A stretch of 64,000 nt of DNA. Origin: Candidatus Brennerbacteria bacterium (GTDB lineage Bacteria > Patescibacteriota > Minisyncoccia > UBA6257 > GWB1-50-10). Shown here piece after piece: positions 1 through 49,488 of this stretch; the stretch's first letter is position 1, and the number at the start of each line of letters is the position of its first letter. The stretch spans positions 38,015 to 102,014 of the forward strand of contig JACPEK010000006.1 in assembly GCA_016183535.1 (NCBI GenBank), written 5' to 3'. Position numbers and translations under genes: made by a program. Under the pieces are notes generated by a model. The model was not told where the DNA came from, ran no database searches, and saw only the letters and a program-made list of their open reading frames with translations.

Positions 1-870
1 CACCATGCGTCGCAACATCCTCCGTTTCGTCGCAGTGCGGAGTACGCGGTGGTCAGGGAAGTGAACCCAACCGAGGAAGTCCACGCCGGAAGCGAGGGTA
101 CAAATGGAAACTTTGTCGGGATGGAGGTCGAGTTTCAGCCGCTCCTTAAGAAAGGTGGTAAGTTCGGGAAGAATGTGCGCAAGCCGCGCACGGCCCTGCG
201 AAAGCACCGTAAAATCATCGGCGTAGCGGAGGTAATGTTTCACTTTGAGTTTGTGTTTTACGAATTGGTCAAATTCGTTCATGTATACGTTCACGAGAAG
301 CTGGGAGGTGAGGTTGCCGAGTGGCAGGCCTTTCCCCTCTGCGCCAGAGGAGAAACTTTCGATTATGCGCTTGAGAAACCACATAACGTTCTCGTCTTTA
401 ATACCTCTCTCAAGAATCTCGATGAGAATGGTGTGGTTAATACTCGCGAAGAATTTTCTCACGTCGCACTTGAGAACCCAACAGGTGCGGGTGTTGTTGC
501 TACTGACTTTGTATGCAAACGAGCGGAACCTATTTATAGCTCGGTGGGTTCCCTTCCCCACGCGGCATGAGAAAGAATCGGCGATGAACCTCCGGTCAAA
601 ATAAGGGTAGAGGACGCGGTAGGCGGCGTGGTGGAGGAGGCGGTCGCGGACGGTCGCTTTGTGGATGTTCCGCGGTTTGGGGTCAGTAATGTTGAAGGCG
701 CGGTAAGGCCCATGGCGATACCTGCCGCTCACGAGGTCGCGGTGGAGCGCGAAGATATTATCCATGAGTCGTAGACCGAACTCTTGCACGTCCGGCTTTC
801 CCCGTTTCCCGCGCAAAAATCCGCGCCACGCTTCGAGTAAGTTTTCGACGCTCGTGATATCCTCAAACAT
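1..870 (-). CDS. reverse transcriptase, DGR/retron-type; C-terminus runs off the window start (3'-partial)
   Basis: Minus-strand translation from ATG 870..868 gives MFEDITSVENLLEAWRGFLRGKRGKPDVQEFGLRLMDNIFALHRDLVSGRYRHGPYRAFNITDPKPRNIHKATVRDRLLHHAAYRVLYPYF... It continues through KCDVRKFFASINHTILIEIL, GLPLGNLTSQLLVNVYMNEFD, the catalytic LRYADDFTV (YADD codons at 214-228) and HPDKVSI..ASGVDFLGW, with no stop down to position 1. It is absent from the ORF track because it is open-ended. The plus-strand ORFs 49..570 and 245..604 are its antisense. Confidence 0.85.
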   Translation of the reverse strand, partial: MFEDITSVENLLEAWRGFLRGKRGKPDVQEFGLRLMDNIFALHRDLVSGRYRHGPYRAFNITDPKPRNIHKATVRDRLLHHAAYRVLYPYFDRRFIADSFSCRVGKGTHRAINRFRSFAYKVSSNNTRTCWVLKCDVRKFFASINHTILIEILERGIKDENVMWFLKRIIESFSSGAEGKGLPLGNLTSQLLVNVYMNEFDQFVKHKLKVKHYLRYADDFTVLSQGRARLAHILPELTTFLKERLKLDLHPDKVSICTLASGVDFLGWVHFPDHRVLRTATKRRMLRRMV

Positions 871-1254
871 ATGCAACCTATAACCCCCCCCCCCCGACGC
901 AATCAGCTGCCGGTAATCCAGAAACTGGTGGCGGCGTATAAACTGTGGCACGCGTTAGTACAAAATTTTCGCAGGACATCACGTTACACGCTCGGAGCAA
1001 AAATCGATTCCTTGCTTCTTGAGGTGATTGAAAACACCGTCGCCGCAAGTTACCTGCCTATCCATGAAAAATCATCCGTACTCGCGAAGTCAATCTCAAA
1101 ACTAGACTTCGTAAAGTTCTTTCTCGAGGTGGCGTGGGAAATAAAAGAATTGGACTCTAAGAAATACATCGCCGTTTCCGAAAAGCTTGATGAAGCGGGC
1201 CGCATGCTCGGCGGATGGAAAAAGGGCCTCGAAAAGAAAACTCTCGCTCAATAG
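871..1254 (+). CDS. avd: Avd-like accessory variability determinant (four-helix-bundle protein, TIGR02436-like)
   Basis: 127 aa. Resembles Bordetella-phage bAvd in pattern (e.g. ...KLDEAGRMLGGWKKG vs ...IAEVGRILGSWIARV). The start ATG directly abuts the divergent RT start (CATATG at 868-873). Contains a C12 homopolymer at 884-895 encoding TPPPR. Confidence 0.7.
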   Translation: MQPITPPPRRNQLPVIQKLVAAYKLWHALVQNFRRTSRYTLGAKIDSLLLEVIENTVAASYLPIHEKSSVLAKSISKLDFVKFFLEVAWEIKELDSKKYIAVSEKLDEAGRMLGGWKKGLEKKTLAQ

Positions 1255-1271
1255 GAGCGAGAGAAACAGTG

Positions 1272-1389
1272 AGTTTCGGGACCACGAGACGAAGCCTGCC
1301 CCCAGCGAACCACACGCTGCCGTCCTCAAGCCGGCGCACGCGCACCCTGAGCGCGCCGCCCGAGCGCACGAACACGTCAGCAACGAAGA
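1272..1389. repeat. DGR repeat copy A (118 bp), TR candidate; lies 18 nt after the avd stop
   Basis: Near-identical to 1709..1826: 115/118 identical. The differences are A1276 t / B1713 g, A1297 t / B1734 a, and A1345 c / B1782 a. Confidence 0.7.
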
Positions 1390-1620
1390 CAATATGTACG
1401 AGGAGCCGTCTGCGCCACCACCCGTCGAATGTTCTCCGGGTTGTATCGTATGCGGGACCTTGAAGTCCTCCAGCTCGCCGCACCAACTGGCTGTTTTTTG
1501 TTTTGAAAACCGCACCCACGCTTTTGCAAGACGTGTCCGGCAAAATTCTCGGATCCGATATTCAGCAACCGCCACTTGAAGCCGTAGCCGCAAGATAGTT
1601 CCGGATTGCACTTTTTACTG

Positions 1621-1662
1621 TACAAAAAATCCCTTAGATTCTCAAACGCGAGAGTCTAAGGG
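1621..1662 (-). terminator. hairpin plus T-run downstream of the candidate DGR target gene (possible DGR 3' hairpin/cruciform or rho-independent terminator)
   Basis: The plus strand reads cccttagattctc-aaacgc-gagagtctaaggg, a 13-bp stem with one G-U pair. On the minus strand it is followed by ATTTTTTGTA. Confidence 0.6.
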
Positions 1663-1701
1663 ATTAAAGAATTAAATAATCGATCACTAAAGCACAAAGC
1701 G

Positions 1702-2226
1702 TCAAGCCAGTTGCGGGACCACGAGACGAAGCCAGCCCCCAGCGAACCACACGCTGCCGTCCTCAAGCCGGCGCACGCGCAACCTGAGCGCGCCGCCCGA
1801 GCGCACGAACACGTCAGCAACGAAGAATTTCCCCTTCGATCGGAAGAGAAAAAACGTTCCGTAGCCGTCCGTGCGAAGCCAGCCGCGGTGCTTTCTGACA
1901 AAGTTCTTGATCTGGGACTGTGTGAGGCAGAGCTTGTTCAAATCGTTTGAAAGCGACCCGAACATTTGCGCGAACGTGGCATTCTGAACCATTTCGTAGA
2001 CGCTCGCGGGCGTCTCTCCCGTCGCAGAACCCGCCTCGTCGGCACCGTAGTTCACGAAATCGGAATCGATGTAGGTGAAAATGTCTGTTGCCTTCGCGAG
2101 CGTTTCCGATCCGTCAACGGCATCGAGAACGATCGAGGTACCGGCCGAAATCAGCTTCAGGAATGCGTGCTTCGCGCCGTTTGCAGCTGCCACCATGAGC
2201 TGGATCTCGTTCAATTTGCGTGCCAT
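1702..2226 (-). CDS. hypothetical protein, candidate DGR target (C-terminal ~38 aa encoded by repeat copy B)
   Basis: ORF 1702..2259 trimmed to M12 (MARKLNEIQLMVAAANG...), which is preceded by GGAGGTG 6 nt upstream. Codon usage is coherent. The C-terminus ...FVADVFVRSGGALRLRVRRLEDGSVWFAGGWLRLVVPQLA is encoded by the repeat. Confidence 0.55.
   Translation of the reverse strand: MARKLNEIQLMVAAANGAKHAFLKLISAGTSIVLDAVDGSETLAKATDIFTYIDSDFVNYGADEAGSATGETPASVYEMVQNATFAQMFGSLSNDLNKLCLTQSQIKNFVRKHRGWLRTDGYGTFFLFRSKGKFFVADVFVRSGGALRLRVRRLEDGSVWFAGGWLRLVVPQLA
1709..1826. repeat. DGR repeat copy B (118 bp), VR candidate; forms the 3' end of the minus-strand gene 1702..2226
   Basis: See copy A. The repeat ends about 5 nt before the stop codon of the 174-aa gene and is followed (on the minus strand) by a 13-bp hairpin. 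Confidence 0.7.
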
Positions 2227-2428
2227 GAGGCACCTCCATATATTTTGGCCACCCACCACTCCCTCGTTTGTTCGGGAGTATCGGGCTAGCCATTGTTAAT
2301 TTTGCTTTTCCATTATAGCACGCATCAATATAAAAGTCAAATTCCTGTCATGGTTCAATACCTTGTAATCACCTAGGGTATGAAGATGGCATATTCAACC
2401 AATCTTCCCTTTCCCCTTCCTCTGGCAC

Positions 2429-2464
2429 GGTGCTTCGATTAATCGAAGCACCTGTGGTATAATA
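2429..2464 (+). promoter_or_regulatory. 24-bp perfect palindrome (ggtgcttcgattaatcgaagcacc) abutting an extended -10 TGgTATAAT; putative operator/promoter of the yerC-like gene
   Basis: Perfect dyad at 2429-2452. TGGTATAAT is at 2455-2463, about 50 nt before the ATG at 2515. Confidence 0.5.
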
Positions 2465-2514
2465 AACAAGGTAACAAGGTTGATGGTACTACGAACAAAC
2501 CACAACATATAAAT

Positions 2515-2904
2515 ATGGTCCGGGTAAATAAAACCCAATTCCCCGTGAAGTTGAGGAGAGAGGCGCGGGAGCGTCTCCGACGCTTGCTCCACGGAACGGC
2601 TTCCGGCGAGGAACTTTTTCGCACTCTCGCGCAAATTCTCACGCCCATGGAGTTGCTCCTCATTGAGAAACGGCTCGCCATACCAATCCTTCTCGCGCGC
2701 GGCATGAGCTACCGCGAGATTGGGCGCACTATTGATGTGGGCCCTGCCGCCATCAGCTTCGTGAAACATCACCTCACGCGAAAGCCGAGGGTGCCGCGCC
2801 GTTACGACGCCCTCCCTCCGATTCGCAGGAGCAAGGAACACTGGATGGAAAAACAAAAGCGAGGCAAGAAACAATACTACATGGGCGTGAGAGTAGTTTG
2901 GTAA
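2515..2904 (+). CDS. TrpR-like / YerC-YecD family DNA-binding protein
   Basis: ...GEELFRTLAQILTPMELLLIEKRLAIPILLARGMSYREIGRTIDVGPAAISFVKHHL matches the TrpR/YerC helix-turn-helix pattern. Confidence 0.55.
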   Translation: MVRVNKTQFPVKLRREARERLRRLLHGTASGEELFRTLAQILTPMELLLIEKRLAIPILLARGMSYREIGRTIDVGPAAISFVKHHLTRKPRVPRRYDALPPIRRSKEHWMEKQKRGKKQYYMGVRVVW

Positions 2905-3005: not shown

Positions 3006-4262
3006 CTACTTTCCTATCTCCTTCTTCCCAAGATATGCTTGGAGCACTTTCGGGATCTTTACGGTGCCGTCCTTGGTTTGATTATTCTCAATGATCGCGA
3101 TTAAGGTGCGGCCGATCGCGAACGCGGTGCCGTTCAGCATGTGAGCGTACGCTTTCTCGCCGCTTTTTCTCTTCACTTTTACGTTCACCCCACGCGCCTG
3201 AAAATCGGTGGTGTTCGAGCACGACTGCGTCTCGCGATACGTTCCCTCGCTCGGAAACCACGTTTCGATGTCGAATTGACGCGCGTCGGTCCATCCCATG
3301 TCGCCTACGCAGATTTCGACAACGCGATACGGGAGTTCCAATTTCTGCATGAGTTCCTCCTGTCGATCGAGGAGGAAGCGGTGTTCTTTTTCCGACTCGG
3401 CGGGGTTGGCGAACGAAAACATCTCCACCTTGTCGAATTGGTGAACCCGCAAAATTCCTTTCGTATCTTTGCCGTAGCTCCCCGCCTCCCGCCGGAAGCA
3501 GGTAGAAAATCCGACGTATCGCCGCGGAAGCGATTGCTCGTCAAGCATCTCATCCATATGCAAGGGCCCCAAGGTGTGTTCCGCGCTCCCCACGAGGTAG
3601 AGATCATCCTTCGGAAGATAATACCGCTCTTCTTTCTGATCCGACGCGAGACGTCCCATGCCCATGAATACCTCGGGGCGTATCATTACCGGCGGCACCA
3701 CCGGCACAAAGCCGCGCGCGGTCAGAACCTCCATCGCGAGACGGACGAGCGCAAATTCGAGGAGCGCGCCGTCCCCCATGAGATACCCAAAGCGGCTTCC
3801 CGCGACCGTGGCGGCCCGCTTCACCTCGATCATCCCGAGCGGCTGGGCGATCGCAAGGTAGTCCTTCGGTTTGAAATCAAACCGCGGCTTTTCTCCGACT
3901 TCGCGAAGCGTCTTATTCCCCGACGCATCGAAACCGTCCAGCACGTCCGAAAACGGCGGATTCGGAAACTGTTCAAGAAGCACGGCCCGTTTTTTTTCGA
4001 CGTCCGCGAGCGACGCCGCCACCTCCGCGATGCGGTTCTTTAATATTTGCGCCTGCGAGAGAAGTTCCTCGCTTCTCGTCTCCGCGAGCGATTTCGACGC
4101 GGTCCTCTGTTCAGCCTGCAAAACATCAAGCGCCGCCCGTTTCGTGCGCCAGTTTTGGTCTACCCGCAGAAACTTTTCGACGAACTTCGGATCCACCCTC
4201 TTTCGTGCGAGGGCTCGCTTCGCGTCTTCCGGATTATCACGCAACCACTGAATATCAATCAT
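3006..4262 (-). CDS. serS: seryl-tRNA synthetase
   Basis: N-terminal coiled-coil plus the class II core; TCFRREAGSYGKDTKGILRVHQFDKVE motif. Confidence 0.95.
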   Translation of the reverse strand: MIDIQWLRDNPEDAKRALARKRVDPKFVEKFLRVDQNWRTKRAALDVLQAEQRTASKSLAETRSEELLSQAQILKNRIAEVAASLADVEKKRAVLLEQFPNPPFSDVLDGFDASGNKTLREVGEKPRFDFKPKDYLAIAQPLGMIEVKRAATVAGSRFGYLMGDGALLEFALVRLAMEVLTARGFVPVVPPVMIRPEVFMGMGRLASDQKEERYYLPKDDLYLVGSAEHTLGPLHMDEMLDEQSLPRRYVGFSTCFRREAGSYGKDTKGILRVHQFDKVEMFSFANPAESEKEHRFLLDRQEELMQKLELPYRVVEICVGDMGWTDARQFDIETWFPSEGTYRETQSCSNTTDFQARGVNVKVKRKSGEKAYAHMLNGTAFAIGRTLIAIIENNQTKDGTVKIPKVLQAYLGKKEIGK

Positions 4263-5706
4263 GTTTTTTACCTTCCGGCCTCATCAAAGGGAACAATGTG
4301 GTTTCACGGATCGGTTTGTCCATGAGGATTGCGAAGAGACGCTCGGAGAGACCGAAGCCCGCCGCGGGCGGCATGCCATACTCCAACGCTTCGATGAAAT
4401 CCTCGTCCATCCGCTGGGCTTCGCGATCTCCCGCCGCCCGCGCCTTCTCCTGTTCTTTAAAACGCGCGCGCTGATCTACGGGATCGTTCAGTTCCGAAAA
4501 TCCTTTCCCCAACTCCGTGCCACCCGCCACAATCTGAAAACGCGCGACGCGAGTTCGATCGTGCGACAGACGCTTCGCGAGCGGTTCCACCTCCACCGGC
4601 GGGTCCACGAGGAAACACGGCTGGGTCAGCTTTGGCCGCACGGTTTTTTTATAGATGAGATCAATAAGCCGCCCCTTCTTCGCGTTCGGCTCTGGTTTCG
4701 CGCCCACCCTCACCGCTTTTAACCTCAACTCCTTCTCGGTCGCCTTCGCAAGATCGAGACCCGTTGCTTTCTTGAACGCGTCGAAGTAGTCCACCCGCTT
4801 CCATTTCGCATTCCATTTAAGCGTCTCTTTCCCGAATTTGGTCGTCGTGCCGCCCGTCGTTTCTTTCACCACTTGTTTATAGAGCGCCTCTGTGAACCTC
4901 ATCATTCGCTCGTAATCCCAGTACGCGGCATAACACTCCATCTGCGTGTAATCCTGAAGATGTTCCCGGTCGATCCCTTCGTTCCGGAAGACGCGCCCGA
5001 TTTCGAATACCTTCTCGAATCCGCCGACCAAGAGGCGCTTCAAGGGAAGCTCCAAGGAGATGCGAAGGTAAAAATCGGCATCAAGCGCGTTAAGGTGCGT
5101 GACAAAGGGTTCCGCATCGGCGCCGCCGGGGACCGCTTCTAAAACCCCCGTTTCTACCTCATGAAATCCTTCAGCGATAAGCTCACGCCGGATCGTACTC
5201 CAAAACCGCTCTTTTTTGAGAAAGAGTTCTTTCGTCTCCGGGTGTACCAGTAAATCAAGATAGCGTTTCCGGAGGCGCGTCTCCACGTCCTCAAGTCCAT
5301 ACCAGTGCACGGGGAACGGACGCATGCTTTTCACCGCGATACGGAGCGCCGCCACCGCAAGACTTTTCGTTCCGCGCTTCGTCGTCGTGGGGATTCCTTT
5401 CGCTTCCACGAAATCGCCGACGTCCAATGTTTGCTTGAGAAACGCAAACCGTTTTGTGACGCCGTGCGCAAGCACTAATTGGATGGCGCCGCTCTCGTCC
5501 GCACAATTCGCAAACACGATTTTCCCCTGATCGCGGAGCGAGGTAACGCGGCCCACAAGCGTGAGGGAGGATTTTTTCTTTCTGCCGAATGAGCCGAGCG
5601 CTTCCGCGATATGCACATCGCGAACCACGCGCGCGGGATAGGAGTCGGCTTCGCGCTCGTACCGTTCCCGTTTCCTCGCCCGTTCCGCCAGAATATCTTC
5701 CAGCAT
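4255..5706 (-). CDS. lysS: lysyl-tRNA synthetase, class II
   Basis: OB-fold N-terminus; FEIGRVFRNEGIDREHLQDYTQMECY core motifs. Confidence 0.95.
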   Translation of the reverse strand: MLEDILAERARKRERYEREADSYPARVVRDVHIAEALGSFGRKKKSSLTLVGRVTSLRDQGKIVFANCADESGAIQLVLAHGVTKRFAFLKQTLDVGDFVEAKGIPTTTKRGTKSLAVAALRIAVKSMRPFPVHWYGLEDVETRLRKRYLDLLVHPETKELFLKKERFWSTIRRELIAEGFHEVETGVLEAVPGGADAEPFVTHLNALDADFYLRISLELPLKRLLVGGFEKVFEIGRVFRNEGIDREHLQDYTQMECYAAYWDYERMMRFTEALYKQVVKETTGGTTTKFGKETLKWNAKWKRVDYFDAFKKATGLDLAKATEKELRLKAVRVGAKPEPNAKKGRLIDLIYKKTVRPKLTQPCFLVDPPVEVEPLAKRLSHDRTRVARFQIVAGGTELGKGFSELNDPVDQRARFKEQEKARAAGDREAQRMDEDFIEALEYGMPPAAGFGLSERLFAILMDKPIRETTLFPLMRPEGKKHD

Positions 5707-5707
5707 G

Positions 5708-6178
5708 TTATTCGATCCTCACCACCTGATATGCGTTCATTCCTTTCGGCGTGGTAATGGTCACCGTATCACCCACCTTTTTTCCGAGAAGCGCGCAACC
5801 AAGGGGCGATTCGTTCGAGATAAACCCCTCGGCGGGTTTTGCTTCGTTTGAACCGACGATCGCGAACGTCGTTTCGCTAAAACCTTCGCCGAGCCGCGTT
5901 ACCGTCACCCTACCGCCAATTCGCACGGTGGAATTCCCGCCCGTTTTTTTGATGATGACGGAGTTGCGGAGAAGCTCTTCGAGTTCATGGATCCGTCCCT
6001 CGAGGCGGGATTGCTCTTCCCGCGCATCGTGGTAATCAAAATTCTCGGAGAGGTCTCCGAGGTCCTTGGCGTTCTTGAGGCGTTCCGCGACGCGCTTGCG
6101 ATCGTCCGTTTTCAGTTTGTGCACTTCCCGAACGATCTCGTCGTATCGTTCCTGGGTGAGGTAGGTGTGGGTGAGCAT
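5708..6178 (-). CDS. greA: transcription elongation factor GreA
   Basis: GDLSENFDYHDAREEQ signature; C-terminal FKBP-like domain. Confidence 0.9.
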   Translation of the reverse strand: MLTHTYLTQERYDEIVREVHKLKTDDRKRVAERLKNAKDLGDLSENFDYHDAREEQSRLEGRIHELEELLRNSVIIKKTGGNSTVRIGGRVTVTRLGEGFSETTFAIVGSNEAKPAEGFISNESPLGCALLGKKVGDTVTITTPKGMNAYQVVRIE

Positions 6179-36373: not shown

Positions 36374-37897
36374 TTAGCGGCACGTTTGAACAGTTGTATT
36401 GACTCCATATCTTCCGATAAGACCAACATTGCAATCAACGTCGCCATTATAAAATCTCCATCCCGTAGGGGCAACCACAAGAGGTCCTGGAAACGAATTT
36501 CCGCACGCCACGGCATTTGCGTCAAACGTACCGCCGATATTTTCCGACGGGCAATAGAGGAAACCGACGTTTGGCGAGCACGACCCGCCATCACTTTGTT
36601 TTCCGGTAGTGCCGAATGGAGTAGTTGAAAGACTTGCCGTGCAATAATAGTTGGTCGCGGTTTCGGATTTTGTGGCAACGCTGTCACAGTTATAATCGAA
36701 ACTTCCGTCGCCGCGGTTCGTGCTGTAATAGGCGGTCTGCCCGGGTTTCGCGTTCGCGTTCGAATCGTAGCAATCGTTCGTGTTAATGATGCTCCCCTGC
36801 GCAATCTGGTTATAACTGCCGCTTGAGTTCTTGTAGTAGGTGCGGCCGCTCACCGTGGTCACACTCCCCACGCACGCACTCGCCGCGCCAGACATCGAAT
36901 AGCCGTCCTGATCGCCGTCGGTCGCGACCGACTGATTTTGGTAGATATTGGCGTTTGCGTCGCTACAATCCCCGCCTGTCGTCACATAAGGCGAACCCGC
37001 GCCGACCGACACGCACGCAATCGTCGCGCTTCCATACCCGTCACCGTCGTTGTCTACATACCGGTCAGCGGCCACGCTCGCATTCGTATCATTGCAGTCG
37101 TACACGTTCCCGATCGCAGTGAAAGTGAGACGCTGACTCCAGGTAAGCAGATAGTTTCCGCCTTTTATTCGGTAATAAGTTCTCCCGCCCGCATACGAGG
37201 GAGCGCCGACACACACCGATCCCACAGGGGAAGCACTTGGCGTATAGGTGTAACCGTCCTGATCCTCGTCCCAATCCCATTCGACTGGTACGTTTTGATA
37301 GACCGAGGAGGAAGTATCGTCGCAATCGGTTCCGGACGAAGAAGCGGAATATCCCGAGGGGAGCGAGGAGCCGGAACACACGGACTGGGCCGATCCCGTG
37401 GTGTACGCGTCACCGTCCCCGTCGGGGTAGCCAGTAAGGTACTGCCACGTCGAAGCGCTCGAGTCATTACAGTCGCCCGCCTCGCTCCGGGTGCTCCTCC
37501 TCTGATAGGAGCTTGGCTGGGCATCCTGTGCCAGCATGTCGGTGCTATTTAGCGAGTACCCATCGTTATCCGCGTCTTTAATCCAAAGATTTGTCTGCTT
37601 GAGCTGGGCACCGCTCGCGGAAAGCGCGATCGTGCCGTTCACCGTGATGCTCTTTCCGGCATTCCATGCGATGGTCTGGTTCGCGTTTACGGTGAGCGTT
37701 ACGCCGGCGTTCACGGTGATGTTGCCGTTGTCCACACCATTCACCGAACCGGTAAACGCGCAGTTCGAGTTGACGATGTGATCCCCCCCAAGCGAGGGAG
37801 AACAATTCGCGAAGGCGCGCGGCGCAACGGAAAACCCCGCAAGCAAGATTGCTCCAAATATCCAAAATCTTAATGACGAATTAAAAACTGTAGACAT
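36374..37897 (-). CDS. secreted Cys-rich repeat protein with about 5 MopE-like putative metal-binding repeats (DC[ND]D...DxDGDGY...C)
   Basis: Signal peptide present. Repeats include GDCNDSSAS...PDGDGDAY..C, TDCDDTSSS...DEDQDGYTY..C, YDCNDTNAS...DNDGDGYGS..C and GDCSDANAN...DGDQDGYSM..C. Confidence 0.55.
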   Translation of the reverse strand: MSTVFNSSLRFWIFGAILLAGFSVAPRAFANCSPSLGGDHIVNSNCAFTGSVNGVDNGNITVNAGVTLTVNANQTIAWNAGKSITVNGTIALSASGAQLKQTNLWIKDADNDGYSLNSTDMLAQDAQPSSYQRRSTRSEAGDCNDSSASTWQYLTGYPDGDGDAYTTGSAQSVCSGSSLPSGYSASSSGTDCDDTSSSVYQNVPVEWDWDEDQDGYTYTPSASPVGSVCVGAPSYAGGRTYYRIKGGNYLLTWSQRLTFTAIGNVYDCNDTNASVAADRYVDNDGDGYGSATIACVSVGAGSPYVTTGGDCSDANANIYQNQSVATDGDQDGYSMSGAASACVGSVTTVSGRTYYKNSSGSYNQIAQGSIINTNDCYDSNANAKPGQTAYYSTNRGDGSFDYNCDSVATKSETATNYYCTASLSTTPFGTTGKQSDGGSCSPNVGFLYCPSENIGGTFDANAVACGNSFPGPLVVAPTGWRFYNGDVDCNVGLIGRYGVNTTVQTCR

Positions 37898-42504: not shown

Positions 42505-45450
42505 TTATTTGATGATGAGCGAAGGCCGCTCCGTTTGATCGGGCGCCAACGTCGGCCACTCTCGCCAGTCGAAGCGATTGCCGACGAGGCGATAGCTGAA
42601 CTCGATAGAATCAGTGGTTGGTGGTTGGTGGTTGGTGGTTGGTTGGGAACGGAAGATTATTTTGTTTCCGGAAATTTCGTAGGCGATGGAAACGGGGACG
42701 CCGTAGGGAGTGGCAAGCACTTGAACGGTGTCGCGGCTGAAGTCAACGGTCTTCCGCCACACCCACAAATCTGAACCGCTTTTTATCTTGTCGAAGTCGA
42801 TGACATACTCGTAGGTCGGTTCGGTAAACTCGAAACCTTTTGAATTTTGAGATTTCGGATTTGTTTCGGATTTCGGATTTCGGATTTCGGATTTGCGGAC
42901 GAGCGTAGCGCGGCCGACATATTCTTCCTTCACCCCTCCCGCGATGGCAGAAGCGTAGGTCGCGTATTTTTTCCCTCCGATCTCATAGAGCGGGTCGATG
43001 GTGGTGACCGTAAGCTTGTTCACGCCGGTGATGTTTTTCGAGTTCGCGTTGAGGTTGGTAACAAGCGCGCCGCCGAAGGAGAGGTTGCCATTCAAGGTGG
43101 AGGTGCCGGAGACGGTGAGCGTGGTGAAGCTCCCCGCGCCGCCGCCGCCCGTCACCGCGGAGTCCACGTAATCCTTCGTCGCCGCATGGGAAGCTTGTGT
43201 CGGCGTCCCCACGATCACCGGCTGGGAGAAGTAGCCGGTACCCGCGACGGTCAGGGCGTAGCCCGGCGTGGTCGAGGCGATACCGAAATTGTTGCCGGTG
43301 TTGAGGTAGCTCGCGCCGTTCGTGTCGAAGGTGATTTCGACACCTCCGTTCTCGAAAAGTTGGAAGTAGCCCGGGTCGCTCCCTCCCGCTTCTGCGAATT
43401 TTGCATACACATTCCCTTGATTTCCTGTAAGTTGAAGGTCGGGGTTGCCGCCGCCATTTTTGATATACACTCCTCCGGTCGGGGTCGCGCCTCCTTGAAT
43501 TTCGAGTTTGTACCCCGGACTCGCCGTCCCGATGCCGACCGAATCGCCGGAGGTCGTGAGAGAGACGTTCGCGCCGCTGTCGGTCCAACCGCTCCCGCTC
43601 GTTACCGTGGAGTCCACATAACTTTTCGTCGCGGCGTGGGAATTCGCGGTCGGGGTGCCGACAATCACCGGCTGGGAGAAGTAGCCGGCACCGACGGTCG
43701 TTAAAACATAGCCGGGAGACGAAGACGCGATGCCGATGTTGCCGGTCGCATTGATATGAAATCTCACGTCCGTGGTATTGCCGGTCGCAATCGAAAACAA
43801 GTCCTGTGATTTGATTACCAAGTCGTTCGGCCCACCGCCACCCTGCAAACCGATATCGTCATTTGCGGCAATCTGTCCCGCCAGTGTCGTATCCGCTCCG
43901 TCGTAGATATCAATCCGGTTGCCGAAGCGGGTCGCGCCTTTCACGTGGAGTTTCTGTTGGGGGTTCGTCGTTCCGATGCCGACGTTCCAACTTGTGGAAG
44001 ACGCGTAGAGATTTGAGCCGGAAAGCAACCACACGCCGCTCGAGCCGGAAGCGACGGAGTCCACATACGACTTCGTCGCCGCGCTCGTGCCTGTCGTCGG
44101 TGTGGGAACGGTAAGCTGACCCGTAAATCTCCCCGTGCCCACCACGTCGAGCGTATAGGCGGGAGTGGTGGTGGCGATCCCGACGTTGCCCGAGCTATCC
44201 ATCACCAAACTGTTCGCCGTTCCGGCGGTATTGATAGTAAATTTGTCGGCGCTGTGGCTATAGATAATCCTCCCGCGATACGCCTGATCGCCGGTCGTCC
44301 CGTCGGCGAAAAGTATGGAGCCGTCGCCCGCGCTGTAGATGGTAAGTCCTTGCGAACCGGCGCCGGAGCCCACTACGAGCTGATTCGCCGATGAGTCGAG
44401 TGAGGACGCGGGCGCGGTACCTACGGAAACCAAGCCGTTCACCTGCAAAGCGCTTGCGGGAGTGGTGGTCCCGATACCGACGTTGCCGGCTCCCGTAAGA
44501 GTCATGACTGTCTTTCCCCCAATAGTACTTGCGGCATCTCCCTGTTTCCACAAAGAGAAAATTATTTTGTTTCCGCCCGCAACCCCAGAATCATGTTCTG
44601 TGGTTATCATATGGGCATAATCGGTAGTGCCGTTATATCCGAAAACAATCTGCCGACCTCCCTGACTGCCGGTATTATCCATTCCCGACCTCAAAATAAG
44701 CGCATTAGTTGAGATTGTTGAAACAACATCAAGCTTTCCACTCGGACTCGTCGTCCCGATACCGACGTTGCCTTTGACATACAAACCCTCGGTGGGAAGC
44801 CCGCCCGTCGTCGTGGTCCCCACCGCGAGCGAAGCGGGAAACGCGAAATTCCCGTTTCCCTGCAAGCTCCCGAAGACGCCGGACGAGACATTCGCCGCGG
44901 AAAGCCCGCCCGAGAGCGTACCCACAAAAGCGCCGGTTGTCTGCACATTCCCTCCGACGAAAAGACGCGCGACGCCGCCCGTCGAGGTCGCTTTCTGCCC
45001 GATCGCCACATCACCGTACTGGTTCACGTCGAGCACCACATAGCCCGGAAGCGTGGCCGACTCGCGGTAGAGCTGGAGGTTGCCGAAGTTTCGCGACGAC
45101 CACACATAGGTGTTCCCCGACGTGAGGTTTTTGAGAGAAAGTCCGGGGTTCGTGGTCGAGGCCACCGTGAACACATACCCGAAGGTGGAGGGCCCGCTCT
45201 CGGTCGAGGTCGAGTTGAAAGTCGAAACCGGCGTCGAGGACGAGGCGCCGAAACCGATGTTCCGGTTCGCGTCCACCTGGAAGAGCCCGCCGCCCGAGCC
45301 GGGGGTTTGACCCGCAGACGGCCCGATAAAAGCGAATGCTATAGGCGCAACCGATATTTCAAATATCAAACACCACAAGAAAAACAGCCCAGTTTTTGAA
45401 AAGGAAAGATAGTTTTTAATTTTTAATTTTTGAATTTTATAAATAAACAC
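42505..45450 (-). CDS. large secreted fibre/adhesin-like repeat protein (981 aa) with at least 7 NVGIGTTxP...L[DE]V.G repeats, a conserved C-terminal domain, and two in-frame heptanucleotide repeat tracts
   Basis: Signal peptide present. Repeats include NVGIGTTSPSGKLDV, NVGIGTTTPASALQV, NVGIATTTPAYTLDVVG, NVGIGTTNPQQKLHVKG, NIGIASSSPGYVLTTVG and SVGIGTASPGYKLEIQG. The C-terminus ...IDPLYEIGGKKYATYASA...YRLVGNRFDWREWPT is shared with the 416-aa paralog. Confidence 0.6.
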   Translation of the reverse strand: MFIYKIQKLKIKNYLSFSKTGLFFLWCLIFEISVAPIAFAFIGPSAGQTPGSGGGLFQVDANRNIGFGASSSTPVSTFNSTSTESGPSTFGYVFTVASTTNPGLSLKNLTSGNTYVWSSRNFGNLQLYRESATLPGYVVLDVNQYGDVAIGQKATSTGGVARLFVGGNVQTTGAFVGTLSGGLSAANVSSGVFGSLQGNGNFAFPASLAVGTTTTGGLPTEGLYVKGNVGIGTTSPSGKLDVVSTISTNALILRSGMDNTGSQGGRQIVFGYNGTTDYAHMITTEHDSGVAGGNKIIFSLWKQGDAASTIGGKTVMTLTGAGNVGIGTTTPASALQVNGLVSVGTAPASSLDSSANQLVVGSGAGSQGLTIYSAGDGSILFADGTTGDQAYRGRIIYSHSADKFTINTAGTANSLVMDSSGNVGIATTTPAYTLDVVGTGRFTGQLTVPTPTTGTSAATKSYVDSVASGSSGVWLLSGSNLYASSTSWNVGIGTTNPQQKLHVKGATRFGNRIDIYDGADTTLAGQIAANDDIGLQGGGGPNDLVIKSQDLFSIATGNTTDVRFHINATGNIGIASSSPGYVLTTVGAGYFSQPVIVGTPTANSHAATKSYVDSTVTSGSGWTDSGANVSLTTSGDSVGIGTASPGYKLEIQGGATPTGGVYIKNGGGNPDLQLTGNQGNVYAKFAEAGGSDPGYFQLFENGGVEITFDTNGASYLNTGNNFGIASTTPGYALTVAGTGYFSQPVIVGTPTQASHAATKDYVDSAVTGGGGAGSFTTLTVSGTSTLNGNLSFGGALVTNLNANSKNITGVNKLTVTTIDPLYEIGGKKYATYASAIAGGVKEEYVGRATLVRKSEIRNPKSETNPKSQNSKGFEFTEPTYEYVIDFDKIKSGSDLWVWRKTVDFSRDTVQVLATPYGVPVSIAYEISGNKIIFRSQPTTNHQPPTTDSIEFSYRLVGNRFDWREWPTLAPDQTERPSLIIK
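42615..42642. repeat. (TGGTTGG)x4 perfect heptanucleotide tandem repeat inside the coding sequence (encodes QPTTNHQPPTT)
   Basis: Read directly from the sequence; an imperfect homolog lies at 38713..38740 in the paralog. Confidence 0.9.
42864..42891. repeat. (TTTCGGA)x4 heptanucleotide tandem repeat, plus degenerate flanking copies, inside the coding sequence (encodes KSEIRNPKSETNPKS)
   Basis: Read directly from the sequence. Confidence 0.9.
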
Positions 45451-49322: not shown

Positions 49323-49488
49323 TATCTAAATCCTAAATACCGATTTTATCGAGTATCCTCGACGCAGTCGGGACAAATTCGAAATCCAAAATCCGAATGT
49401 TCCAAACGTTTCGGGTTTAGTATTTTGAACATTGGGATTTGTTTATGGTTTAGGATTTCGGATTTAGAGTTTAGAGTTTTATTTTTCT

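Follow-up and report, generated by a model that had tools for sequence, protein, structure and literature searches.

A diversity-generating retroelement in Candidatus Brennerbacteria with adenine-specific changes in its template repeat

Background

The rules of diversity-generating retroelements (DGRs) are that the template repeat (TR) is invariant and that information passes only from the TR to a variable repeat (VR). In the Bordetella element this directionality is set by a stretch of 21 bp, the IMH (for initiation of mutagenic homing), at the 3' end of the VR (PMC3240598, PMC5703328), and Avd-binding stem-loops, commonly of 9 bp, have been reported downstream of TRs (bioRxiv 10.1101/2023.10.23.563531). 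DGRs of the Candidate Phyla Radiation (CPR) were surveyed by Wu et al. 2018 (PMC5758913). According to that survey, architecture B3 covers 90% of CPR DGRs, those that were putatively functional were kept, and more than half of the candidates were discarded for stops, truncations, or poor TR-VR matches and left unanalysed. Here we describe the DGR at the start of a 64,000-nucleotide stretch from a Candidatus Brennerbacteria bacterium (GenBank: GCA_016183535.1, contig JACPEK010000006.1, positions 38,015 to 102,014), hereafter the window, in which the TR itself lacks most of the adenines that its relatives retain.

The cassette belongs to the CPR DGRs that have already been surveyed. Because non-functional candidates were discarded there, an adenine-poor case would go undescribed in it, and a literature search found no description of a natural TR with A-to-N scars or adenine loss. 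How, then, does a supposedly invariant template come to lose its adenines? Have they been lost singly by point mutation, has the VR been recombined into the TR, or has the mutagenic machinery of the element written into its own template?

Results

Coordinates are those of the window throughout, and the anatomy of the cassette is read on the minus strand (Table 1). A 118-nt direct repeat is present as copy A (1272-1389) and copy B (1709-1826), at an offset of 437 nt, and is the sole repeat pair of such a kind across the 64 kb. The copies have exactly three mismatches, which on the plus strand are 1276 T/1713 G, 1297 T/1734 A, and 1345 C/1782 A. Copy B makes up the last ~38 codons of a 174-aa open reading frame (ORF) and finishes 4 nt ahead of its stop codon. 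The order on the minus strand is the target gene (2226-1702) containing the VR (1826-1709), a terminator hairpin, a structured leader RNA of ~230 nt, the TR (1389-1272), a 9-bp stem-loop, an inverted avd gene (871-1254), and the reverse transcriptase (RT) gene from 870 to 1, with CATATG at 868-873 forming the RT/avd junction. An original prediction, made from the letters of the window and its ORFs, had proposed a DGR here, and all of its coordinates were correct; the 118-nt repeat with three mismatches and an offset of 437, the RT, avd, and 174-aa ORFs, and the CATATG were each re-found.

That prediction left two options for the TR, copy A on the minus strand or copy B on the plus strand. We compared 79 genome and 80 metagenome loci that encode a homologue of the target. 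The order target, gap of ~430 nt, inverted avd, and RT is found in about 45 of the 79 genome loci, and 44 genome and 38 metagenome cassettes have a TR of ~118 nt at a distance of 420-464 nt downstream of the start of the VR. The TRs of these cassettes contain 24-36 adenines and have 7-24 mismatches to the VR at TR adenines, usually with 0-3 elsewhere. Their translated consensus is FFVA-N-V-N-V-N-S-D-G..L-N-V-N-V-N-R-F-E-N-D-N-V-W-N-A-E-N-R-H-R, and its variable positions are encoded by AAC or AAT. Copy A is in the place of these TRs, has the same length, has an offset to the VR within their range and TR-type flanks on both sides, and is the best match in the window to a family profile of the TR and its 3' flank (64.7 bits, E 2.6e-19; the VR scores 30.4 bits). 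Position, length, offset, flanks, and profile thus all identify copy A as the TR, which makes copy B the VR, and both are read on the minus strand. Copy B has adenine at both internal mismatches when read on the plus strand, which had favoured the other option. That option is rejected, as copy A is the positional ortholog of the TRs in ~80 cassettes, is the best TR-profile match, and lies in no plausible plus-strand gene, and copy B ends a conserved minus-strand gene.

The window TR departs from its family in one respect. Taking columns with at least 80% agreement among family TRs as conserved, it has another base than the consensus in 19 of the 24 adenine columns and in none of the 52 non-adenine ones (Fisher p = 1.1e-13), and each of the 17 conserved T columns is unchanged. 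It keeps five of the 24 consensus adenines; relatives keep 17-24, mostly 23-24. The bases replacing the lost adenines (G 11, T 5, C 3) match the spectrum of bases that face TR adenines in the VRs of the family (G 276, T 213, C 115), and the window VR has the same base as the window TR at 19 of the 19 changed positions. The former AAC codons now read GAC, TTC, CGC, CGC, CGC, GAC, GGC, AGC, TTC, and GGC, and a CAT has become CTT, which bears out the earlier remark that no classic AAC pattern is present. An alignment of the window TR with that of L005, its closest high-GC relative, has mismatches at 21 of 26 A positions and at 10 of 87 non-A positions. Compared with this family, the adenine-rich AAC/AAT template is a feature that has been lost here and was not ancestrally absent. 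The alignments thus show that the window TR carries the mutation signature of the DGR itself, shared with the VR. Near-identity of the two copies had been taken to mean an element either recently homogenised or decaying; the near-identity is real, and that reading had missed the loss, from the TR itself, of 19 of the 24 adenines conserved in the family.

On its sense strand the TR has nine adenines, six internal (1377, 1348, 1326, 1323, 1318, and 1297, the last being outside the 24 consensus columns) and three in the AAA at the 3' edge, so the count of six made previously holds for the mutable part. With six adenines there can be 4096 variants of the DNA and ~2300 of the protein, against ~10^14 DNA variants for the ~24 adenines of relatives, and the variable protein would therefore be close to hard-wired. 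Retention of ancestral adenines in the window TR is 0.21; the VRs of 44 relatives, each changed by a single round, range from 0.22 to 0.67. No TR in ~82 other cassettes is equally depleted, with L066, described below, as a partial exception. When the alignment is widened to 27 adenine columns and 87 TRs, 24-27 are kept in all but the window and its own copy in the Logan assemblies (L161), L066, a VR/TR fusion (L024/L139), and L163, a member of another target family.

Three positions separate the VR from the TR. At 1734 an A of the TR is T in the VR (R165W), at 1782 a G of the TR is T (V149L), and at the edge, 1713, the TR has AAA and the VR CAA. The same AAA/CAA difference at 1276/1713 recurs in most relatives at the point where TR/VR homology ends, and is by this comparison an edge difference and not mutagenesis. 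The proposal that two of the three mismatches were A-to-N thus stands for 1297, a TR adenine opposite T in the VR, and fails for 1345, where the TR has G, and for the edge at 1276. The difference at 1297 fits continued activity of the element.

Could the depleted TR be an artefact? The source is a metagenome-assembled genome (MAG), and hypervariable repeats can confuse assemblers. However, Logan assemblies of two independent runs (SRR12113420 and SRR12113422) have an identical RT and continue from avd through the TR flank CCGAAACTCA into the adenine-poor codons, with single 31-mers bridging CCGAAACTCA and the altered codons. One of them spans the whole TR and ends at its 5' edge, where the repeat copies diverge. 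In addition, a TR rich in adenine would have no k-mer of 21 or longer in common with the VR, which makes a chimeric path implausible, and an assembly chimera is excluded. Pressure towards high GC content is likewise excluded, since L005 (GC 0.564), L162 (0.53), and L163 (0.537) have adenine-rich TRs with adenine-only mismatches. An exact search of metagenome contigs with a 27-mer of the window TR/VR gave no match.

A second, partial case was found among the relatives. L012 (6397-6979) and L066 (231-793) are overlapping contigs carrying haplotypes of one cassette, from a Moranbacteria UBA2282 MAG. Over ~900 nt they are identical except for the VR, one 20-nt indel in the leader, and seven TR positions. 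L012 has A at every one of the seven, where L066 has C, T, or G. The L066 VR matches the L066 TR at those seven sites and differs from it only at seven further TR adenines, with zero non-A mismatches. The sites that are shared with the VR interleave with unshared ones, as a cDNA route would explain, and one codon (AGT) is unlike both the old TR and the VR, so that a recombination tract or chimera is disfavoured. The simplest reading of these sequences is that the L066 TR was adenine-mutagenised and then served, in its altered form, as the source of a new VR, and the case therefore favours retrohoming into the TR over gradual decay.

Another path of cassette decay appears in L024:6380-6560 (= L139:3380-3560), where the target runs from the diversified 5' part of a VR into the 3' part of a TR (NAENCHRLVTPKL). 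This fusion continues into the TR 3' stem-loop and truncated avd and RT genes, the leader is missing, and the arrangement looks like a deletion by VR-TR recombination.

The RT is closest to that of the Bordetella DGR. The fragment in the window, which had been called from its YADD motif, minus-strand orientation, and truncation, is indeed an ORF from 870 open to the window edge with ...LRYADDFTVL..., and it matches Pfam RVT_1 (E 1.7e-25). Its best match among solved structures in the PDB is the Bordetella RT, bRT (8ub7; 157 bits, E 5.7e-45), with group II intron RTs next at 83 bits or less; LGNLTSQLLVNVY aligns with IGSLTSQLFANVY of bRT, and an LGNLTSQ motif lies opposite IGSLTSQ. That the RT might instead group with those of group II introns or retrons fails on these scores and on the dedicated models (TIGR04416, 149 bits against a cut-off of 300; retron St85 RT, 54 bits against 235). 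No Rfam family, among them intron and msr-msd RNAs, matches window 1-2600, leader included, at E up to 1. Recovery of the full RT had been suggested earlier, and the complete 318-aa protein is on public record (P0121, Candidatus Brennerbacteria MAG). Of the 87 columns with 95% or higher conservation across 53 relatives, it departs from one, which is also the background median, and its nearest relative is 75% identical. The closest RT relatives, L162 (2100-2700) and L163 (640-1260) at 75% identity, diversify unrelated targets with different VRs, and one is also from Brennerbacteria. Since these RTs serve unrelated proteins, RT lineage and target family are not tightly coupled.

The Avd-like gene of the original prediction is confirmed by its 127-aa ORF, which scores 51 bits against Pfam bAvd (cut-off 40) and 68 bits against NCBIfam DivGenRetAVD, under the cut-off of 80. 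It has the same place and orientation in ~45 of the 79 related genome loci. Given the bRT-like RT, the bAvd protein, and the ~80 orthologous cassettes with adenine-specific TR/VR differences, the element is by sequence a bona fide CPR-type DGR, of a known kind and in an unusual state. These cassettes also speak against the suggestion that the repeat is an ordinary duplication found in relatives without RT and avd.

Near its 5' end avd carries a run of C. In 56 non-redundant cassettes this run ranges from C6 to C12 and is kept even in AT-rich CPR genomes. Only 22 of the 56 have an upstream ATG that shares the frame of the avd body; in the other 34 an out-of-frame ATG reads into the C-run. Differences of one C flip the frame between near-identical elements (L118 C11 against L117/L016 C10, L017 C9 against L123 C10, L083 C6 against L119 C7). 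The window has C12 and is in frame, and the run is 11 long in two Logan assemblies of this locus. The tract is a candidate slippage or phase-variation switch, with homopolymer consensus error or a location in the 5' untranslated region as alternatives. A literature search gave no relevant paper on a homopolymer or phase variation in avd.

The RNA parts of the cassette are conserved in the family. A profile of the interval from target stop to TR, built from 42 relatives and spanning the terminator hairpin, a -10-like box, and the leader, matches window 1676-1391 (227.7 bits, E 2.8e-69). RNAalifold predicts 64 pairs in the leader, 39 of them with double compensatory changes. A long-range helix pairs 1483-1471 with 1407-1396 and ends just ahead of the TR. 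The window leader retains 45 of 49 consensus pairs (family median 47) and is probably the part of the TR RNA that recruits RT and Avd in these CPR cassettes. The stem-loop 3' of the TR is also family-conserved, with compensatory changes in five of six predicted pairs, and is intact in the window; its size and place make it a putative Avd-binding element. A candidate priming helix between GAAAC at the TR edge and GTTTC downstream was dropped because several relatives have GCAAC without a complement.

The hairpin after the target gene consists of 11 + 4 bp at ~1630-1665, followed by a T-run on the minus strand. A terminator-like hairpin was present in all 25 cassettes examined, 25-50 nt past the target stop. 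The hairpin and T-run of the original prediction are thus real, and correspond to this family terminator-like hairpin and not clearly to a DGR target-site cruciform. Directly after the hairpin relatives have TGTATAAT, in place of which the window has TGTACAGT. By alignment TGTACAGT is a putative promoter of the TR RNA, possibly a weakened one.

To judge from these comparisons the RT, the in-frame avd, the RNA scaffold, and the 3' stem-loop all look intact, and the adenines alone have decayed. Either the loss of adenines is recent or the element is still maintained.

The target has no family match in Pfam or NCBIfam. Its 126 homologues are all from Patescibacteria and share a core of ~130 residues, the nearest being 67% identical to the window protein. 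The final ~40 residues of these homologues fit the pattern FFVAxVxVxSxGGLxVxVxRFxxxxVWxAxxRxRxVVPQLA, where x marks a hypervariable position. A C-type-lectin-like fold, proposed earlier as a check on the 174-aa protein, is weakly supported, and a Foldseek search of the PDB gave no significant match. Exact look-up of the protein sequence returned nothing on record, probably because contigs break at the repeat. A tblastn search across the window found no other target paralogue or VR. About 34 of the 79 genome loci (such as L002, L009, L013, and L020) have a target homologue but lack avd, RT, and TR within 6 kb, and such lone homologues are trans targets or else have outlasted a lost DGR.

Table 1. 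Features of the DGR cassette and their positions in the window
Feature	Position	Strand	Basis or remark
DGR reverse transcriptase	1-870	-	RVT_1, bRT 8ub7 match, YADD; first 290 of 318 codons, the rest cut by the window edge
avd (accessory variability determinant)	871-1254	+	Pfam bAvd; inverted relative to target, TR, and RT
C12 homopolymer at 5' end of avd (encodes T-PPP-R)	884-895	+	G-run on the RT-sense strand
9-bp stem-loop and U-run directly 3' of TR	1241-1263	-	Family-conserved; overlaps the avd stop codon
Template repeat (TR), adenine-depleted	1272-1389	-	TR-profile match; mutable part ~1277-1389
Structured non-coding leader of TR RNA	1391-1616	-	Nucleotide profile and covariation in relatives
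Promoter-like box TGTACAGT	1617-1624	-	Alignment to TGTATAAT of relatives
Terminator-like hairpin and T-run after target gene	1630-1665	-	Conserved in relatives
Variable repeat (VR), target codons ~134-173	1709-1826	-	Repeat of TR
DGR target (variable protein), 174 aa	1702-2226	-	ORF ending in copy B

Several other features of the window were recorded. Divergent and upstream of the target gene, 2515-2904 on the plus strand encodes a small TrpR/YerC-like helix-turn-helix protein (Pfam Trp_repressor, 28 bits), and large ORFs adjoin at 3006-6178. A third, weak match to the TR profile (37653-37723, 15.7 bits) was rejected as a TR or remote VR, as it lies within an Asn-rich ORF with which only short AAC-rich stretches are common. 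That ORF (36374-37897, minus strand) encodes 507 aa rich in Asn, Thr, and Gly, with an N-terminal hydrophobic segment and 'D-x-D-G-D-G-Y' and 'C-x-D-x-N-A' repeats, and its AAC-rich start gives the chance match. Three diverged 153-nt direct repeats with ~450 nt spacing are present at 43139-44188, and 42838-42894 and 49416-49472 are paired low-complexity segments rich in TTTCGGATT.

Discussion

In the relatives the canonical DGR mechanism would operate. RT and Avd would make cDNA from a TR RNA, with wrong bases incorporated opposite the ~24 adenines of its AAC/AAT codons, and the mutagenised cDNA would replace the VR. The TR RNA unit of the window is ~400 nt long, comprising the structured leader, the 118-nt TR, and the 9-bp stem-loop with its U-run. 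In the window the mutagenised cDNA may have been mis-targeted, homing into the TR instead of, or besides, the VR. Such retrohoming may have been repeated, acting as an adenine ratchet, and the VR would then have been rewritten from the altered TR by ordinary TR-to-VR homing. Since 19 of 24 adenine columns have changed, no conserved non-adenine column has, and the VR agrees at all 19, we consider it probable that the template received mutagenised sequence, with retrohoming as the likeliest route. Repeated write-back is possible because adenine retention in the TR lies below that of every single-round VR.

Several observations weigh against retrohoming. The VR keeps five of the six residual TR adenines, a proportion above that in the VRs of all 44 relatives (maximum 0.67), and this would fit a faithful copy by recombination, or selection, at least as well as fresh mutagenic homing, with a faithful recombinational copy being the simpler. 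The internal difference at 1345 (TR G, VR T) is at a non-adenine. The 3' flank of the TR is still TR-type, and no IMH*-to-IMH-like change that might explain mis-targeting was seen. Recombination between VR and TR does occur in the family, as in the L024/L139 fusion deletion. Finally, the lineage is isolated (nearest target 67%, nearest RT 75% identical), which means that the loss of adenines cannot be timed.

Of the other explanations, the one that survives best is conversion of the TR by the VR through homologous recombination or template switching, without the RT and with two later point mutations in the VR. A single event of this kind accounts for the five residual adenines that VR and TR share, the fusion deletion attests to VR-TR recombination in the family, and a retention of 0.21 is just under the single-round range. 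Yet before conversion the two repeats would have had perfect identity over only ~11 nt (5') and ~16 nt (3'), and still the entire mutable tract has been replaced. Neither the interleaved sites nor the AGT codon of L012/L066 can come from a conversion tract. We therefore regard conversion as rather unlikely.

Gradual loss of TR adenines by point mutation, under relaxed selection or as residues were hard-wired singly, with the VR kept in step by homing, seems to us improbable. The lineage has long been isolated (nearest RT 75% identical), the near-identical TRs L119/L147 and L091/L090 show single adenine-site differences, and a replacement spectrum of n = 19 cannot formally exclude neutral mutation. 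Against this, ordinary decay would have to spare all 52 conserved non-A columns and all 17 conserved T columns, five of the 19 changes are A to T despite a genome of 57% GC, and equally GC-rich relatives retain their adenines. Ordinary divergence looks different, since between the close TRs L083 and L119 the changes are at non-adenine positions and the adenines are spared. Apart from L066, L024/L139, and L163, 84 other family TRs keep 24-27 of 27 adenine columns, and L066 lost seven adenines without any other substitution in ~900 nt. Nor does the remaining cassette show relaxation, at 1 of 87 RT columns and 45 of 49 leader pairs. An assembly artefact, or an ordinary duplication unrelated to the DGR, including copy B as a plus-strand TR, is close to refuted by the 31-mer junctions in two further assemblies, the k-mer argument, and the orthology and 64.7-bit profile match of copy A.

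The templates of the window and of L012/L066 bear an adenine-specific mutation signature, contrary to the rules of an invariant template and one-way flow of information. A supposedly invariant template can thus be corrupted in nature, and the window system is nearly frozen. If retrohoming is the cause, it would be a natural route for DGR self-extinction or for fixing a useful variant, a new explanation for some surveyed 'non-A' TR/VR mismatches and 'inactive' DGRs, and a practical warning for engineered DGR mutagenesis systems. More tentatively, the one-way rule may be leaky in this CPR family. Mutagenised cDNA would then sometimes home into the TR and adenines would ratchet away, seven in L066 and nineteen in the window, which would provide a built-in route to hard-wire a selected variant and end diversification with the machinery intact; the slippage-prone avd poly-C may also gate activity. 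The structured RNA 5' of the TR, the poly-C tract, and the minimal, perhaps lectin-like variable domain matter for the function and regulation of the abundant CPR DGRs.

Comparison with known systems

Set beside the CPR DGRs of PMC5758913 (architecture B3 and 'unknown VR' classes UVR1-6), the window holds a similar chromosomal, single-target CPR cassette with avd, TR, and RT, whose gene order may be that of B3 and whose VR may belong to one of UVR1-6. It is similar also in that its target has no known domain and its VR sequence is not assignable to the C-type-lectin or Ig class. Compared with variable proteins of C-type-lectin fold (Mtd; TvpA, PDB 2y3c), the window-family domain is very small, at ~130 residues, and its variable positions alternate along beta-strands.

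With the BPP-1 DGR (mtd-VR, avd, TR, brt) the window shares an RT clade with the [IL]GxxxSQ motif, an Avd, a TR/VR pair of ~120 nt whose VR closes the target gene at its 3' end, and a stem-loop just 3' of the TR. The relatives of the window also share with BPP-1 strictly adenine-specific TR/VR differences at AAC/AAT codons. In contrast to BPP-1, avd in the window is inverted and lies between TR and RT, and the TR is adenine-poor. The structured domain of ~230 nt is 5' of the TR in the window family, whereas the structured spacer of BPP-1 is 3' of the TR (PMC12875486). The hairpin that follows the VR in the window family differs from that of BPP-1 in lying 25-50 nt off and in being terminator-like.

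The nearest parallel to a template that has been written upon is an engineered one. In the work on BPP-1 by Doulatov and colleagues in 2004, replacing IMH* by IMH at the TR reportedly makes the TR a recipient. As in the window, the template of that construct is said to receive mutagenised information and to lose adenines. Unlike the engineered element, the window is natural and the 3' flank of its TR is of TR type, and its family includes a partial natural case in L066.

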